From assembly GCA_963710375.1 (NCBI GenBank), contig CAVPZX010000008.1, positions 64,001 through 128,000 of the forward strand: a stretch of 64,000 nucleotides of DNA. Reading direction: 5' to 3'. The position numbers and the translations under genes were made by a program. This document shows positions 7,754 through 58,584 of the stretch, in pieces. This DNA is from Nitrospirota bacterium. Lineage in GTDB: Bacteria > Nitrospirota > Thermodesulfovibrionia > Thermodesulfovibrionales > Dissulfurispiraceae. The notes below the pieces were generated by a model. The model did no database searches. It was not told the origin of the DNA and was given only the letters and a program-made list of their open reading frames with translations. How positions within the stretch are numbered: position 1 is the stretch's first letter; the number at the start of each line of letters is the position of its first letter.

Positions 7754-9046
7754 TCAGCGAGAAGAGAACGTATAGTCAACCTGTGGGATCAGTGCGCCAC
7801 GTCTTGTATGCGCCCTAAATTTTGCAGATGCTTCAGAGGGCGTTATTTCGAAATATGCGGCTTCCTGAATGTAATCCTCCATGACAATATCAGAAAGACC
7901 CGACTTGAGGCCAAGGCCGAGCATATACATCCCCGGCATAAGCAGCAGGTTTCTAAATTCCGCTATAATTTTGTATTCACCTGGCTGGACATTGTCCGGC
8001 GATATACTATCTGAGGACAGGGAAGATGCAATCTCGATGAAGTTATTGTTATATAACGCTATGCCAAGCTCGATCGTGGGCAGCGGCTTCGTGACCGTCA
8101 CCGATATTTCAAACGTGGGATGTTCTCCAAAAGCGATATGCCATGGGGTATCGGAATCAGTTATCATTTTTATTCCCTTTAGCATTGCACCCTTGCTGAG
8201 CATGGGTGATGTTCTTTTCTTGACCGAAAGGTCGATTACACGGCCAGAAGACCCGGCCCAATCTGCTACATAATTATTGACACATTTTTCTATCTCGCCT
8301 ATAAACCGCGTAGAACCATCCCGTAAATGAATACCTCTATTACAGAAACTCAAAACAGCGCCCATATTGTGACTCACAAGTATTACGGTTCTCCCTTCTT
8401 TGCCCACATTTTCCATCTTCCCCAGACACTTTTTCTGAAACTGCACATCACCCACCGCGAGCACTTCGTCTACAATTAATATCTCCGGCTCAAGATGGGC
8501 CGCCACGGCAAAAGCCAATCTCACATACATGCCCGACGAAAAGTGCTTCACCGGAGTATCGAGAAATTTCTCGATCTCGGCAAAATCAACTATATCGTCA
8601 AACTTCTTTTTTATCTCGGCCTTTGTCATTCCCAGGATCGCGCCGTTAAGAAAGATATTCTCACGTCCCGTCAGTTCAGGATGGAAGCCGGTGCCTACTT
8701 CAAGGAGGCTTGCCACCCGTCCTTTGATACCGATCTTTCCGGTGGTCGGTTCTGTAATCCTGCTGAGAATCTTCAGAAGAGTTGATTTTCCCGCGCCGTT
8801 TCGACCAATGATACCCACGCGGTCCCCGCGCTCAATCTCGAAATTAATATCCTTAAGAGCATAAAAGTCTTCCCGGGAAGCAGCAAGAGGTGAAGTGGGA
8901 TCGGTAAAAGGTGAAAGCATTCTTCGACCGAAATTTCCGACGCCCCTTGCAAGCACATCCCGCAGGGCGGTGTAACGCTCCGTCTGCTCGTGCCGCAGCC
9001 GGTATCTCTTGCTGAGCTTTTCGACTTTGATGACGGTGTCACTCAT
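7754..9046 (-). CDS. wzt: Polysaccharide ABC exporter ATPase with C-terminal Wzt_C domain
   Basis: GRNGAGKST Walker A, FSSGM signature, ILIVDEVLAVGD; ~170-aa C-terminal extension. Confidence 0.93.
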   Translation of the reverse strand: MSDTVIKVEKLSKRYRLRHEQTERYTALRDVLARGVGNFGRRMLSPFTDPTSPLAASREDFYALKDINFEIERGDRVGIIGRNGAGKSTLLKILSRITEPTTGKIGIKGRVASLLEVGTGFHPELTGRENIFLNGAILGMTKAEIKKKFDDIVDFAEIEKFLDTPVKHFSSGMYVRLAFAVAAHLEPEILIVDEVLAVGDVQFQKKCLGKMENVGKEGRTVILVSHNMGAVLSFCNRGIHLRDGSTRFIGEIEKCVNNYVADWAGSSGRVIDLSVKKRTSPMLSKGAMLKGIKMITDSDTPWHIAFGEHPTFEISVTVTKPLPTIELGIALYNNNFIEIASSLSSDSISPDNVQPGEYKIIAEFRNLLLMPGMYMLGLGLKSGLSDIVMEDYIQEAAYFEITPSEASAKFRAHTRRGALIPQVDYTFSSR

Positions 9047-9054
9047 AAAGTCAC

Positions 9055-9082
9055 ATGAATAGTGAATTGTGAATAGTGAATT
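9055..9082. repeat. 7-mer tandem array ATGAATA GTGAATT GTGAATA GTGAATT
   Basis: Read directly; reverse-complementary in consensus to the array at 9474-9501. Confidence 0.9.
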
Positions 9083-9096
9083 GATTTCCCACGAGA

Positions 9097-9483
9097 CTAT
9101 TTTTCACTGTTTATTTTACCTTTCATATAGTTCATCAATCCTGCCAACTTGCCGGCAACTGAATCGATCTTGTGATCCAGTTCGATCTTGTCCTCTTTGC
9201 TAAGGTACTCCAGATTAAATGCAATCTCCATCTGCGTATCCAACTCACTGAGAGACCCTCCAGCGACGTTAAGAAATTGAGCAAATGCCTTCCGGGAGTT
9301 GCGGGCAGCGCCTTCGGCAATATTACTAGGTACAGAAACAACGGATCGGCGCATTTGCGAGGCCAAGCCATAAGTTTCCGACTTGGGAAACCTTTCTGTA
9401 AGCCGATAGATATGCGTTGCAAGTGCAACACTTTCGCACCACACATCGAGTTTCTTATGTGCCCTGTATTGACTATTCACCAT
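9097..9483 (-). CDS. Four helix bundle protein (23S rRNA IVP / bAvd-like family)
   Basis: KLDVW, FPKSETYGLASQMRRSVVSVPSNIAEG, A.GSLSELDTQ family motifs; 128 aa. Confidence 0.9.
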   Translation of the reverse strand: MVNSQYRAHKKLDVWCESVALATHIYRLTERFPKSETYGLASQMRRSVVSVPSNIAEGAARNSRKAFAQFLNVAGGSLSELDTQMEIAFNLEYLSKEDKIELDHKIDSVAGKLAGLMNYMKGKINSEK

Positions 9484-9501
9484 TCACTTTTCACAATTCA
9501 C
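9474..9501. repeat. 7-mer tandem array TATTCAC CATTCAC TTTTCAC AATTCAC
   Basis: Read directly; contains the ATG of the four-helix-bundle gene; begins 3 nt after the wzm stop. Confidence 0.9.
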
Positions 9502-9504
9502 GCC

Positions 9505-10329
9505 CTAAATCATATCCGCAAAAGTCTTCTCGGTTTTTCTGAAATACCAAATGCCTGAGACAAGCAATATACCGACGATTGTCATCGAAACTATAAAGCC
9601 CGGTAGGTAGATTTTGCTTTCGCCTCTCAGGATCGCCCAGCGAAAGCCGTCTATCACACCCACTATGGGATTAAGCGAATAGAGAAAACGCCATTTACCA
9701 GGTACAATGCTGCTCGAAAAACCCACGGGAGAAATATAAAGGCCGAATTGGAGTATGAAAGGGACGATGTAACGGAAATCTCGATACTTGACATTAAGGG
9801 CCGTAAGCCAGAGTCCTGCACCCATGGAAGCAGCAAATGCAATTCCAATGAATAACGGCAAGGCCAGGATCCGCCAACCAGGCGCAATATGGTACCAAAC
9901 CATAAGACTAACTAGGATTGCGCCGGAGATAAGGAAATCCACAAAACTCGTAATCACCGCGCTAGCAGGTATAATCAACCGTGGAAAATACACTTTCGAG
10001 ATCAGGTTCGCATTTCCGACAAGGCTGTTGCTCGCCTCGGAAAGGGCGTTGGAGAAGAACTGCCAGGGAAGCATAGCGGCAAAAACGAGGATGGGATATG
10101 GGACTCCCTCGGACGGCAGCTTTGCCAGCTTGCCGAAGACCACAGTAAAAACAATCATCGTGAGAAGCGGCCTCAACAATGCCCAGGCAATGCCGATAAC
10201 AGTCTGTTTATAACGGACAAGGATATCGCGCCACGTGAGAAAATAAAAAAGCTCCCTGTATTTCCAAAGGTCTTTCCAGTATCTCCCTTCGATTTTTCCG
10301 GCTTCAATGACTAGATCGAAATTATCCAT
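9505..10329 (-). CDS. wzm: Polysaccharide ABC exporter permease
   Basis: RDILVRYKQTVIG, NANLISKVYFPR, YSLNP, EKTFAD motifs. Confidence 0.93.
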   Translation of the reverse strand: MDNFDLVIEAGKIEGRYWKDLWKYRELFYFLTWRDILVRYKQTVIGIAWALLRPLLTMIVFTVVFGKLAKLPSEGVPYPILVFAAMLPWQFFSNALSEASNSLVGNANLISKVYFPRLIIPASAVITSFVDFLISGAILVSLMVWYHIAPGWRILALPLFIGIAFAASMGAGLWLTALNVKYRDFRYIVPFILQFGLYISPVGFSSSIVPGKWRFLYSLNPIVGVIDGFRWAILRGESKIYLPGFIVSMTIVGILLVSGIWYFRKTEKTFADMI

Positions 10330-14037: not shown

Positions 14038-14838
14038 CTAAATTTGTATTTTTTCGATAGCATCAATCTTTGTTTCCAGGAAACGTTCCCCAACCGATAT
14101 GAATTTCTCGGGAGCATCGGTAACAAAAAACCTCTTAGCTCCAGCCGTCTCGTTCAGGGCCGGCATCCCCTCGTTAACCAGCAACTGCTCCACTGCAACA
14201 GCTGTTTCGACCGCGGAATCGACAAGGCGAACTGCGCCCATTACCTCTTGAATCACATTTTTCAGAAGTGGGTAATGCGTGCATCCGAGCACAAGGGTAT
14301 CCGCGCCCTTATCTCTCATATCGTTCAAGTACCGATCCGCGACCATACGTGCGATAACGCCATCAGTCCACCCTTCTTCTACCAGGGGCACAAATAGAGG
14401 ACACGCGAGGCCATAAACTTCAATATCATGTGACATCCCGTTTATGGCTTTTGAATAGGCGCTGCTTTTGATCGTTGTCTCAGTTCCTATTATACCAATC
14501 TTTTTATTTTTTGTAGCACTGACCGCAGCCCTGGCGCCAGGTTCTATAACTCCGATTACGGGAATAGGGACCCTCTTGCAAATTTCCTGCAGACTTATCG
14601 CGGAAACAGTGTTGCAGGCGACGACGAGGAGTTTTATATTCTGTTTAAGCAAGAAACCGGTGCATTCAAAAGAATAACGAGTCACCGTTTCAGGGGACCT
14701 TATGCCGTAAGGGACACGCGCAGTATCTCCAAGATAGATAATATTTTCGCGCGGCAGCCTTAAGCTCACCTCTTTAAAAACAGTGAGCCCGCCGATTCCG
14801 GAATCGAAGATGCCTATGGGTCGCTCATTATTATTCAT
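14038..14838 (-). CDS. murI: Glutamate racemase
   Basis: IFDSGIGG, VACNT, LGCTHYP. Confidence 0.97.
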   Translation of the reverse strand: MNNNERPIGIFDSGIGGLTVFKEVSLRLPRENIIYLGDTARVPYGIRSPETVTRYSFECTGFLLKQNIKLLVVACNTVSAISLQEICKRVPIPVIGVIEPGARAAVSATKNKKIGIIGTETTIKSSAYSKAINGMSHDIEVYGLACPLFVPLVEEGWTDGVIARMVADRYLNDMRDKGADTLVLGCTHYPLLKNVIQEVMGAVRLVDSAVETAVAVEQLLVNEGMPALNETAGAKRFFVTDAPEKFISVGERFLETKIDAIEKIQI

Positions 14839-17070: not shown

Positions 17071-18036
17071 CTATTTCAAAAATCTTGAGACCTCGTGCAG
17101 AAGCATGGCCACATCAAATTTAACCATGTAACCGTCCGCCCCCACTCCCTTGGCCTTTTCCTTGTTCTCTTCACCGCTAAGCGAAGTATTGATTATTACA
17201 GGCAACATTGCCAATTTCGGGCTGTTCTTTAGATTCCTGGTAAAAGTAAGACCGTCCATCTCAGGCATTTCCACATCGGATATTACCAACTGCACAAAAT
17301 CGGTGATCGGCTGGTCACCTATTTTGGATAAAAAGTCGCCCAGTATCTCAAAGGCCTTCTTTCCGTCAACCGCCTCCAGGACATGAAGACCAACGTTTTC
17401 GAGCGTGTCTTTGAGTATTTTCCTGGCAACAGAGGAGTCATCCGCGATAAGCACGGTGCCCTTCATCTTTTTCTTCCCTATTCTCTCGATCTCTCCAAGC
17501 GCTACTTCCTGAGTATGAACAAGGCCTCCCATTTCCGAAATAACGCTCTCAAGATCGAGGATCAGCAGCAGCGAGTCTCCCTCGTCATCTATCTTCGTCA
17601 CGCCAGTCACCCTGCCGCTGTGCTTTGCCTGCAACAGCGATGGAGGCGGCTTTATCTGGTCCCAATTAATCCGGCGTATACGCTCCACCTCGTGAACGAT
17701 CATCCCCACGGTAGTGCCAAGCATTTCGAGCACAATAACCTTGAGACGTATGTCCATATTTGCCGGTGGAGTCACTTTCATCCATTTGCCAAGGTCAACA
17801 ATGGGGATAACTTCACCGCGCACTTGTGCCAGCGCCTCAGCATATACAGGCATATCCGGGACTTTTGTCAAGGTCGGCATCGGGATTATTTCTCTTACCT
17901 TTGCAACATTGACCCCGTAATCAAGAATTTCGGGAGTACCATCAGGCTGTGAATTGTACATCCTGAAGACGACAAGCTCCATCTCATTCGTTCCAACCTT
18001 TAAGACTTCCGGTAAAGCACCTGAACTCTGAGCCAT
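17071..18036 (-). CDS. cheV: Chemotaxis coupling protein CheV (CheW + receiver)
   Basis: GTNEMELVVF, YGVNVAKVREI, IADDSSVAR, SDVEMPEMDG, K. Confidence 0.92.
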   Translation of the reverse strand: MAQSSGALPEVLKVGTNEMELVVFRMYNSQPDGTPEILDYGVNVAKVREIIPMPTLTKVPDMPVYAEALAQVRGEVIPIVDLGKWMKVTPPANMDIRLKVIVLEMLGTTVGMIVHEVERIRRINWDQIKPPPSLLQAKHSGRVTGVTKIDDEGDSLLLILDLESVISEMGGLVHTQEVALGEIERIGKKKMKGTVLIADDSSVARKILKDTLENVGLHVLEAVDGKKAFEILGDFLSKIGDQPITDFVQLVISDVEMPEMDGLTFTRNLKNSPKLAMLPVIINTSLSGEENKEKAKGVGADGYMVKFDVAMLLHEVSRFLK

Positions 18037-18367
18037 AAAACCTCCGTTTGACTCCAAATTCTCCTCATGGCGTCAATATGTTACGATTAGATTATATATT
18101 TTCAACCTTAGTTTTGCAAGGAATTCCTTTCATTGTATCAACTAGAATTAGGAATGTCCTTTTTTTGTGCCAAAATAGAAAATTCCGGTTTATAGCTGCC
18201 GCATTCCGCAACTTTTTCTATGCTCACATGTCTAATACTAATTTAATAATAAAGCAATTACTATGCCAGAGGAGACAATGTTCTATCTTCTTGATTTGTT
18301 AGGATTTCTGAGGAATATCACACAGTACGGATATGGATAAATTCCAATGTCTATGGAAAACTTACAT

Positions 18368-39040: not shown

Positions 39041-40462
39041 ATGGCAAAAATAAAAACTATATTTCAGTGTCAGTCCTGCGGCTATGCAAGCCCTAAATGG
39101 CTCGGCAAGTGCCCTGATTGCGGAGCGTGGAACAGTTTCTCCGAGGAGCGGCAGAGCCCCAAGGCATTAAAATCCCCGGGCACCTTTGGCGGAGTTAGCG
39201 AAGCCCAGCCTTTGACCGCGATCACCGGGGGAAAAGAACGGAGAAATTGCATCGGCATAAAGGAGTTGGACCGTGTGCTGGGCGGGGGGCTGGTTGACGG
39301 CGCCGTTGTCCTCATAGGCGGCGATCCCGGCATCGGCAAATCCACACTTATCCTCCAGGCCCTGGCAAAAATAGCGGATAAAAAATGCCACCATGAAAAT
39401 ACAACGCTCAATCCTCAACGTGCCTCCGCGCAACCTACTTCCGGCTCAACGGTTCTTTATGTATCGGGTGAAGAATCTCCGGAACAAATCAAATTAAGGG
39501 CTGAAAGGCTTTCGATCAATGCCGAAACGATCATGCTGCTTCCCGAGACGCTGGTTGAAAACATTATCATTACTGCCGGTAAACTCAATCCTGCCGTTAT
39601 GGTGATCGATTCCATACAGACTATTTTTACCGAGGACCTCACTTCGGCACCGGGATCTGTAGGCCAAATAAGGGAATCAGCTGCCAAACTGATGCTCTTT
39701 GCAAAAAAATCCGGGATACCGGTTTTCCTGATAGGGCATGTGACGAAAGAAGGCGCCATTGCAGGCCCCCGGGTACTCGAACACCTGGTCGATACAGTGC
39801 TCTATTTCGAGGGAGACAGGGGACATCCTTACAGAATCCTCCGTACAGTAAAAAACAGGTTCGGCTCAACCAATGAGATAGGCGTCTTTGAAATGACAGA
39901 CAGCGGTCTGTCAGAAATCAATAATCCTTCTGAACTTTTCCTGTCCGAAAGGCCGATCAATGTTTCGGGTTCGACAGTAATCGCCAGCATGGAAGGTACA
40001 AGGCCGCTGCTCGTTGAAATACAGGCACTGGTGGCTCCCACGACGTTCGGCATGCCGAGGAGGACGAGTATGGGTGTTGATTATAACCGTGTAAATCTCC
40101 TTGTAGCAGTGCTCGAAAAAAAAGCTGGCATGCACTTGGGAGGAATGGATATATTTATAAATATAGTGGGGGGACTGAAAATAATCGAGCCCGCCTCCGA
40201 TCTTGGAATTATCGCGGCAATTGCATCCTCCTTCAGAGAGATACCGATAGATTCAAATACCTTCCTTTTCGGAGAAGTCGGGCTTTCAGGCGAGGTGCGG
40301 GCAGTCGCACAAGGAGAAACGAGGCTCAAAGAGGCATCGAAAATAGGCTTTAAAAAAGCGATAATACCGAAAGGCAACATGGAGCGCCTGAAGGACGATT
40401 TGGGGCTTACAATTATGGGGGTTAAGAACGTTGAAGAAGCAATGGAACACATCAAAGCATAG
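39041..40462 (+). CDS. radA: DNA repair protein RadA/Sms
   Basis: CQSCG..CPDC, GDPGIGKST, KNRFG. Confidence 0.97.
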   Translation: MAKIKTIFQCQSCGYASPKWLGKCPDCGAWNSFSEERQSPKALKSPGTFGGVSEAQPLTAITGGKERRNCIGIKELDRVLGGGLVDGAVVLIGGDPGIGKSTLILQALAKIADKKCHHENTTLNPQRASAQPTSGSTVLYVSGEESPEQIKLRAERLSINAETIMLLPETLVENIIITAGKLNPAVMVIDSIQTIFTEDLTSAPGSVGQIRESAAKLMLFAKKSGIPVFLIGHVTKEGAIAGPRVLEHLVDTVLYFEGDRGHPYRILRTVKNRFGSTNEIGVFEMTDSGLSEINNPSELFLSERPINVSGSTVIASMEGTRPLLVEIQALVAPTTFGMPRRTSMGVDYNRVNLLVAVLEKKAGMHLGGMDIFINIVGGLKIIEPASDLGIIAAIASSFREIPIDSNTFLFGEVGLSGEVRAVAQGETRLKEASKIGFKKAIIPKGNMERLKDDLGLTIMGVKNVEEAMEHIKA

Positions 40463-41243
40463 CAAAAAGGACAAAGCGCAAAGTGCAAAGCGCATAGAGC
40501 AAAGTGAAAAGAAAAAAAATGACAATCCCCTGATTGCGGCTCTTTGCCCTTCGCACCGTGATCTTGACCCTATGCCCTTTGCCCTATGCTCTATGCTCTT
40601 TGCCCTTTGCCTGCTTCTTTTTGTTTCCTGTGCGCCAAAATACGCTGAAAAACCCTCACGGGAAGGTATCCCTCTTCCTGAGATACTTGCAAAGATGAAC
40701 ACCGTTCAGTCCATAGAGGCGATTTTATCCATAGACTATGAAAAAAATGACGCTACGATGAGCGGAGATGCCTTCCTAAGTCTTTCCCCTGCTGCACTGG
40801 ACCTCAGAATTTATTATCTCGGCTTTCTTGCCGGCGAGGTCAAAGAAAATAATGGCGTCATAAAGAGCAAACCGAAGCTCGATAAATACAAAAGCATAGT
40901 CCTTGTAGATGGGCTGAGAAACAGCTTCTTGTGGTGGACAATAAGCGACTATACTATTCAGGAGACAGGAGACAGTTATGTGTTAAGGAATTTCAGCAGG
41001 ACGCTGACAATAAGTAAAAAAAACCTGCTTCCGGTGGAACAGACAATCGAACTTGATAACGGGGAAGAAATGACCATATCCTATGATGAGCCGGCCATGA
41101 ACAAACCGGAGGCCGGAAAAAACGGACTTGACCCGGAAATCGCGTGGTACCAATCCCGTCTGTCGATTCGTTATAGAAACCACCAGGTAAAAGTCAGGGT
41201 AAAATCATATACAGCAACAATAGGAAAGGCAGGTAAAGGTTAA
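40431..41243 (+). CDS. Putative lipoprotein of unknown function
   Basis: LLLFVSC lipobox; start is TTG 40431 or ATG 40572; both ends overlap repeat elements. Confidence 0.7.
   Translation: MKKQWNTSKHSKKDKAQSAKRIEQSEKKKNDNPLIAALCPSHRDLDPMPFALCSMLFALCLLLFVSCAPKYAEKPSREGIPLPEILAKMNTVQSIEAILSIDYEKNDATMSGDAFLSLSPAALDLRIYYLGFLAGEVKENNGVIKSKPKLDKYKSIVLVDGLRNSFLWWTISDYTIQETGDSYVLRNFSRTLTISKKNLLPVEQTIELDNGEEMTISYDEPAMNKPEAGKNGLDPEIAWYQSRLSIRYRNHQVKVRVKSYTATIGKAGKG
40471..40610. repeat. Inverted 7-mer arrays (RCAWAGN)5 ... (YCTWTGC)6
   Basis: Left array 40471-40505, right array 40569-40610; the consensus units are reverse complements. Confidence 0.88.
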
Positions 41244-47252: not shown

Positions 47253-47948
47253 TAGCTTTTTAAGCGCCTCTTTTGCTGCATCCATTTGAGATTCCTTTTT
47301 GCTCTTGCCGGTACCGCTTCCGAACAGTTTGCCTTGTATATATACTTCAGTCGTGAATATCTTCTTGTGCTCCTCACCCTCTTGCTTGACTATCCGGTAC
47401 TCGGGGAGCGTACCTACAGAGCTCTGGACCTTCTCCTGAAGCTCGCTCTTAAAGTCATAGTCCTCTTTTCCAAGGATTGTTTGTGAGATCCTGTCATCAA
47501 ACAGCTTTAGGACCACCTCTCTGGCTGTCACATAATCACTATCCAGGAAAACGGCCCCGACCAGTGCTTCGAATGCGTCGGAAAGAACAGACCTTTTCTG
47601 CCGGCCTCCGGTGAATTCCTCTCCCTTACCCAGGCTCAGGTAATTGCCCAGCGACAGCCTGGAAGCCATCTCGAACAGCACCAGCTCTTTCACAAGATAG
47701 GATTTTATTTTTGACATCCCGGCTTCAGTAAGATGCTCTTTGTTGAGGAACAGGGCCTCTGCTATGATCAGACCGAGCACTGAATCGCCCAGGAATTCGA
47801 GCCGTTCGTTGTGGGTCTTTACATCTCCTGCATTTTCATGGTGATATGATTTATGGGTAAGAGCGGTTGCGAGCAGCGACGTGTTTCTAAATGTGTAACC
47901 GAGTGAGGCTTCAATTCCCGCGATATTTTCCGAAGATAAGACAGGCAT
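47241..47948 (-). CDS. rnc: Ribonuclease III
   Basis: [27 protein letters not shown], dsRBD. Confidence 0.96.
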
Positions 47949-58476: not shown

Positions 58477-58584
58477 AAAGACAGGTTAAGGTTAAGGTTA
58501 AGGTTAAGGTAGAGGCAAAGAGTAAGTTAGATTTGGTAGTATGCCGTGTTTTTTTTGTCTTTACCTAAACCTTAACCTGTCTTT
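58477..58584. repeat. Hexamer-array palindrome, copy 5
   Basis: AAAGAC(AGGTTA)4 ... TTTGTCTTTACCTAAACCTTAACCTGTCTTT; fills the argS/RR convergent gap. Confidence 0.88.

Follow-up and report, generated by a model that had tools for sequence, protein, structure and literature searches.

The insert examined in this study occupies positions 9047..9508 (462 nt) of the window, the whole 64,000-nt stretch of DNA that was analysed, and is read on the minus strand together with the host genes on either side of it. The upstream host gene (9505..10329) encodes a wzm-type ABC-2 permease with an ABC2_membrane match and ends in TAG; the downstream host gene (7754..9046) encodes a wzt-type ATPase with ABC_tran and Wzt_C domains. 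The insert opens with an outer 5' leader (9502..9508), in which an in-frame TAG (9507-9505) now serves as the wzm stop codon. The leader is followed by a 5' arm (9467..9501) composed of four GTGAANN units (9501-9474) and a degenerate fifth (9473-9467), a gene for a four-helix-bundle (FHB) protein of 128 aa (9097..9483), a 3' arm (9055..9082) of four WATTCAY units that is the reverse complement of the 5' arm, and an outer 3' spacer of 8 nt (9047..9054), which leads from the arm to the wzt start and has no Shine-Dalgarno match. An earlier note on this DNA had described GTGAANN units that start 3 nt past the wzm stop and supply the ATG of the gene, and WATTCAY units that end 8 nt before the wzt ATG. 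The sequence matches both descriptions exactly: the FHB ATG (9483) is situated inside the third GTGAANN unit of the 5' arm, and the units at 9082-9055 precede the wzt ATG at 9046.

The arms are complementary by 88% over 26 nt, or by 95% over 20 nt. Folding of the mRNA strand pairs them (z -2.78; 1 of 100 shuffles equally good), with a predicted duplex energy of -33.4 kcal/mol and a mean 3'-arm-to-5'-arm pairing probability of 0.84; the proposal of the earlier note that the two arrays might base-pair in the transcript, leaving the gene in a loop, is borne out to this extent, as a fold prediction. The predicted fold further places the FHB start codon in a fully paired position and leaves the wzm stop unpaired. 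The terminal inverted repeats give a long stem around an ORF, as in the intervening sequences (IVSs) of 23S rRNA. The cassette is not inside an rRNA gene, being situated between wzm and wzt, and no Rfam match was found within 8800-9800. We also note a gene with an RNase III domain in the window (47538-47807, minus strand).

The 128-aa ORF matches PF05635 with 125.8 bits (cut-off 33.8) and TIGR02436 with 118.9 bits (cut-off 24). Its predicted structure (pLDDT 95) superimposes on XCC0516 (PDB 2GSC) with a TM score of 0.86, an rmsd of 0.7 and 53% identity, and on Avd, the accessory protein of diversity-generating retroelements (DGRs), with a TM score of 0.74, an rmsd of 1.6 and 9% identity. From the five chains of 2GSC, and from the pentamer described for the family in PMC4990558, we infer that the protein forms a homopentameric ring. 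The dN/dS ratio, about 0.05-0.14 where dS is unsaturated, indicates that the gene is under purifying selection. The profile scores, the fold and the presence of the same gene in the Coxiella IVS agree with the view of the earlier note that the family includes IVS ORFs and is related to Avd. The available part of bioRxiv 10.1101/2023.10.23.563531 describes an Avd pentamer that binds an RNA stem-loop through contacts from every one of its protomers; the present protein shares the Avd fold. In contrast to Avd itself, it falls far below the cut-offs of the Avd profile models, and no match to the reverse transcriptase profile RVT_1 (PF00078) was found in the 98.8%-complete genome, so that the combination of reverse transcriptase and Avd that marks a DGR is missing here.

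Eight of 16 runs, all of them contig sets (X4, X6, X7, X8, X9, X10, X13 and X16), were compared with the window. A contig of X4 carries the filled allele with zero differences over 8500-10152, and X6, X7 and X9 contain identical pieces of it. One contig each in X8, X10 and X13, which come from three studies, passes directly from 9046 to 9509 and skips the 462 nt; this joint was not seen in X16. Precise empty alleles of the kind for which the earlier note had suggested a search in relatives thus exist. The empty-site contigs are about 90-96% identical to the window: ~95% for X8, with 20/419 and 35/791 differences on the two sides, 92-97% for X10, whose shorter flank is 64 nt, and about 90% (88-93%) for X13. 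X8 and X10 have the same year and habitat, and may stem from a single campaign. The empty junction is an ATGA stop-start overlap, which also occurs in G007 (79% aa) and G028, whose wzm genes are the nearest two in a set of 61 related genomes, and in three metagenome loci (L116, L130 and L138). One base fits either side of the joint, which may accordingly shift by 1 nt, and there is no clear target-site duplication; a 2-nt TA duplication may have been masked by one later synonymous change. Since the empty allele is found in relatives, parsimony favours gain over loss, and the cassette was likely gained recently, and precisely, at the overlapped junction. The in-frame TAG is supplied by the insert, leaving the C-terminal residues of Wzm unchanged.

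The same junction was examined in 80 metagenome wzm loci, of which four are incomplete. In the remaining 76, wzt begins within 30 nt in 36, at 31-200 nt in 12 and further away in seven, and no wzt is present in 21. An FHB match lies downstream of wzm on the same strand in six metagenome loci (L115, L121, L149, L166, L193 and L194); these proteins are 31-71% identical to the present one and have different repeat units. A distant FHB branch appears, by eye, to be present at wzm in two others (L174 and L180). The FHB-bearing loci are scattered across the wzm tree (25 rows), and the wzm-wzt junction is a repeated target. Within the genus, the nearest FHB relatives are L066 and L054, which share 93% identity with one another and 70% with the present protein; both have GTGAA arms and occupy unlike sites, that of L054 being a paralogous wzm-wzt junction. 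Other FHB clades keep one site across congeners (L004/L080/L086 and L005/L082/L084/L088), and their fixity implies that movement is occasional. Composite forms were also found, namely arm-gene-arm-loop-arm (L043) and arm-loop-arm-gene-arm (L054); they raise the possibility that the FHB gene is gained or lost when direct copies of an arm recombine. Separately, among the metagenome loci L156, L170, L171 and L172, three have an FHB gene immediately before wzm, and the remaining one has an FHB gene that follows wzm on the opposite strand. Heptamer-like TTCACG runs occur in frame within the 5' part of wzt in two loci from genomes of another family (L022 and L023).

Arrays of period 7 number 324 in the genome, whereas those of period 5 and period 10 number 5 and 8, and GTGAA x3 occurs 193 times as against once for the reversed control. 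Counted with our own unit classes, the arrays make 117 closing inverted pairs, compared with two neighbours in the opposite order. Only two of these pairs, which fall into several unit classes, hold a gene in the loop; the other 115 are gene-less, and 106 of the 117 are intergenic. The GTGAA class accounts for 48 pairs, 47 of them gene-less. The gene-less loops measure 0-141 nt and are partly related: 14 similar loop pairs were found among 40 GTGAA loops, compared with 0-1 in shuffles, which implies that copies of the hairpins are made. Descent of the loops from the present FHB gene was considered and found to be unsupported (best score 14), and a search of this genome for other small cargo genes between arms returned only FHB and ordinary host genes. 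Both outer ends of the hairpins start with an A-rich leader of 6-8 nt, which matches the overhang of the 462-nt insert. TAA stands at the far outer end in 13/25 cases (shuffled mean 9.3, max 15) and, in another set, in 11/19 (shuffled 8.1, max 14). Two gene-less hairpins lie in the window: one of another heptamer class with GCAAAG/GCATAG units (40459..40617) and one of a hexamer class with GGTTAA units (58484..58578), 10 nt past a stop-like TAA.

The difference between filled and empty alleles, taken together with more than 100 gene-less hairpins, makes a mobile element likely. The earlier note had offered a transposase-less mobile unit bounded by the arms as one possibility. Mobility agrees with the empty site, the enrichment of arrays and the 93%-identical FHB genes at unlike sites; the arms do not mark the ends of the unit, which extends past them by 7 nt at the 5' side and 8 nt at the 3' side. 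The FHB gene is the only ORF of the gene-bearing copy, and no transposase, by which an IS or MITE family of the DDE type would be marked, lies inside it. The reading we favour, to which we would give an even chance, is that the cassette is a gene-bearing, REPIN-like hairpin element whose own ring-forming protein recognises the arms and helps them to spread, this role of the protein being a prediction.

The association of gene and arms extends beyond this locus. Six PF05635 genes in the genome score above the cut-off, a seventh, weak match being a kinase, and all six have arrays of 6-, 7- or 8-mers beside them, with no class used twice. By a strict test, inverted arrays flank 54 of the 91 FHB genes taken from the order (mean of 2.5 and maximum of 9 in shuffles) and 41 of the 79 FHB relatives taken from many phyla (shuffled 2.9; control windows 1/72). 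Both the arrays at the FHB genes of the genome and the enrichment among homologues, which the earlier note had proposed to look for, are found. Similar units occur in 18 of 25 FHB pairs with at least 65% protein identity (72%) as against 65 of 1272 pairs below 45% (5%), and no unit is shared in 33 same-genome pairs. FHB clades follow unit class; GTGAA-armed proteins are placed at three or more positions in a quick tree in which 36 of 88 inner branches are open. Such a match between clade and class would also be expected if the arms merely travelled with the gene, with no binding required.

Of the 44 genomes with FHB, 24 are array-rich, with at least 10 array hits summed over five patterns; of the 17 that lack FHB, one is. 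Broken down by class, at least 10 GTGAA arrays are present in 7/7 genomes with a GTGAA-armed gene and in 6/37 other FHB genomes, and the GCTATCA class gives 5/5 cognate and 6/39 other genomes. The match is modest for the GGTTAA class, where the small counts include the arms of the gene itself, and weak for GGYWAW (at least 10 arrays in 3/4 cognate and 10/40 non-cognate FHB genomes) and GAATK (2/4 and 6/40). The assignment of cognates was made by eye on 92 matches, drawn from about 95 of 133 hits, and the genomes compared include kin, so that the counts are not independent.

The hairpins could instead be REPIN- or MITE-like sequences that owe their movement to host recombination or to an HUH (Y1) transposase not linked to them, with the FHB gene as a passenger; we consider this possible, if doubtful. 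Hairpin ends and insertion without clear duplication fit HUH chemistry. Arrays numbering at least 10 occur in 24/47 Y1-bearing and 1/14 Y1-free genomes, about as strong an association as that with FHB, and many array classes have no cognate FHB gene: four abundant classes lack one in this 98.8%-complete genome, and G004 (81% complete) has 60 array hits and no FHB match. The REPIN model is that of PMC3116915. However, the only Y1 transposase of the genome (314 aa, G000:C2:219442-220386) has terminal inverted repeats of its own on both sides (~26 nt), unrelated to the heptamer arrays, and no heptamer array was found within about 5 kb of it; near the Y1 genes of array-rich relatives, a period-7/8 run was observed in 1 of 20 cases, and that was an AT run. 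A genome scan for HUH motifs picked up a single unrelated protein and did not recover the Y1 gene. Among Y1-bearing genomes, moreover, arrays still track FHB (23/39 with FHB and 1/8 without). A passenger role also leaves unexplained the purifying selection on the gene and the wrapping of most family members in many phyla, each paralogue by its own class.

The gene-less hairpins have a marked relation to gene ends. Among 76 co-oriented hairpins, 69 begin within 15 nt of the upstream stop codon or overlap it, against a null of 0.10-0.48 that depends on the length of gene end counted as tolerant, the gene ends being those of our own rough gene caller. The whole junction is filled in 43 of the 76, and a T run follows the 3' arm in 39. 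All 18 hairpins that end within 9 nt of the next start codon leave it, like wzt here, with no Shine-Dalgarno match, an absence that is partly geometric and rests on rough gene calls. Two other accounts were rejected: plain terminators between convergent genes, where the hairpins are not enriched (9/117 vs 368/3010), and selection for stop codons within the repeat unit (35/54 units with a stop vs 33 shuffled). Seventeen hairpin sites were compared with five congeners, and 15 of them were alignable; by eye, nine have another unit class in at least one congener, and eight have at least one congener with a bare junction, which in two cases is a TAATG overlap.

The tie to stop codons, which resembles that reported for Xanthomonas in the available text of PMC4692102, could reflect a post-transcriptional regulator, in which case the FHB protein would bind mRNA hairpins, including that of its own message, at selected sites that change by slippage and gene conversion. 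The predicted burial of the FHB start codon and the frequent T runs fit such a role, and the accessible part of PMC4679880 proposes a repeat-binding protein as a mobile unit. We nevertheless regard regulation as an unlikely explanation, in that a 462-nt unit appears whole between ~95%-identical genomes, which slippage cannot achieve, junctions switch among congeners between bare and several classes, unlike a conserved regulon, and hairpins are not enriched between convergent genes.

In the 23S IVS (helix 45) of Coxiella burnetii, as given in the available part of PMC4990558, an FHB gene is enclosed by a 28-bp stem with heptamers that are cut by RNase III. The present cassette is similar in that its long stem encloses a gene of the same protein family, its length also falls at about 440-460 nt, tandem heptamers precede the start codon, and it has the sense orientation in the host transcript. 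Unlike the IVS, it is situated at a protein-coding operon junction, supplies the stop codon of its host, has more than 100 gene-less sisters and is known from DNA and fold prediction; the same source reports reductive evolution, in contrast to the purifying selection on the gene seen here. That RNase III cuts the stem to remove the FHB message and part wzm from wzt mRNA, and that the cassette is kept for this purpose, is quite unlikely despite the Coxiella precedent, the stem of ~26 bp and the RNase III gene in the genome, because RNase III does not rejoin ends and would leave a wzt message with no Shine-Dalgarno match, the inserted DNA exceeds the stem on both sides and would differ from any RNA excised inside it, and relatives manage with no cassette (the 36 junctions of at most 30 nt). 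Cleavage may be a by-product rather than a function.

For the gene-bearing hairpin element that we favour, the following course of events can be envisaged. The arms would pair in single-stranded DNA or in mRNA. The resulting stem would hide the start codon of the FHB gene, silencing this cargo, and would leave only about 11 nt between the wzm stop and the wzt start; wzt, formerly coupled, would thereby still be translated, and insertion into such a coupled junction would be nearly neutral. The FHB pentamer would bind its own arm class, as Avd binds its stem-loop. Since the protein has neither a transposase nor a reverse transcriptase fold, catalysis is expected to come from elsewhere, and a host or trans-acting enzyme would carry out strand cutting and joining. 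The gene-less hairpins would be non-autonomous copies, related to the gene-bearing form as REPINs are to RAYTs.

The comparison with REPIN-RAYT systems, taken from the available text of PMC3116915, extends to the many gene-less inverted doublets, mostly between genes, and to several classes per genome with one distinct linked gene per class. The differences lie in the linked gene, which encodes an Avd-like four-helix bundle and not a repeat-flanked HUH/Y1 transposase, and in the arms, which consist of tandem 6-9-mers and not of palindromic REPs. FHB genes turn up at new sites, whereas RAYTs appear not to mobilise themselves. The element therefore works like a REPIN-RAYT pair with the anatomy of an IVS, yet belongs to neither group.

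Heptamer repeats of other bacteria show a similar arrangement. In the available portions of PMC4692102, 186 GGGAATC repeats with 70 inverted pairs near stop codons are described for Xanthomonas; like the present arrays, they consist mostly of four units and occur in inverted pairs, with the G-rich strand just past stops. The supplement of that paper places repeat 15 six nt past XCC0517, overlapping the start of XCC0516. XCC0516 is the FHB protein of PDB 2GSC, and both arms surround the FHB gene in three Xanthomonas loci. The portions of the main text that were available mention neither 'four helix' nor XCC0516, draw no link to FHB and propose no way in which the repeats spread. For the TAACTGA repeats of Beggiatoaceae, the accessible part of PMC4679880 finds no mechanism evident and suggests a repeat-binding protein as a mobile unit; it contains neither 'helix bundle' nor 'S23', and gives no FHB link and no mechanism of spread. 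Both papers, as far as available, leave the origin of the heptamer repeats open. A literature search, with most subscription papers outside its coverage, found no paper in which FHB genes enclosed by inverted repeat arms are treated as a family of mobile elements.

Considered together, the cassette is real, was likely inserted not long ago and probably belongs to a widespread family of elements. Tentatively, and with less confidence than in the reading of this single element, we suggest that FHB proteins could be the class-specific recognition rings of a transposase-free mobile family. Each ring would recognise the 6-9-mer arms of its own class, direct insertion to the ends of genes, in many cases where stop and start overlap and are coupled, and give rise to gene-less hairpins throughout the genome. 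The rRNA IVSs and the unexplained heptamers of Xanthomonas, Beggiatoaceae and cyanobacteria would then be its products, and DGR Avd a domesticated relative. One such unit would link the function of the very large PF05635 family, the origin of ORF-bearing rRNA IVSs and the over-representation of heptamers in many bacteria. What is new at this locus is the exact insertion boundaries obtained from 90-96% identical empty alleles; with the 47 gene-less pairs of the same class, they provide a defined substrate, target and cognate protein for tests of binding and mobility.

Several further observations were made in the course of the survey. In three Xanthomonas species (L217, L225 and L255), the FHB gene with GGGAATC/CCCATTC arms is flanked by genes that we take to be accB and accC. 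A GTGAA hairpin lies in frame within a gene of the present genome, presumably nadD (G000:C2:426689-426770, L196); at this site 63 nt are missing from G001 and G007, and variant forms occur in G002, G003 and G005. Of the six FHB genes of the genome, five are clustered with long GAGGACT and GCAAAG runs at G000:C5 ~206000-374000, a region that looks polysaccharide-related by its ORFs and in which several hairpins fall within called ORFs. An FHB gene of G037 (L040) has TAACTGA in its 3' arm, the Beggiatoaceae repeat unit given in the accessible part of PMC4679880. We also note dispersed repeats of 130-190 nt with many congener copies (L195:13735-13930, 14650-14780 and 17891-18065; L196:13512-13693), which in G002, G003 and G005 are situated inside the loop of a heptamer hairpin.
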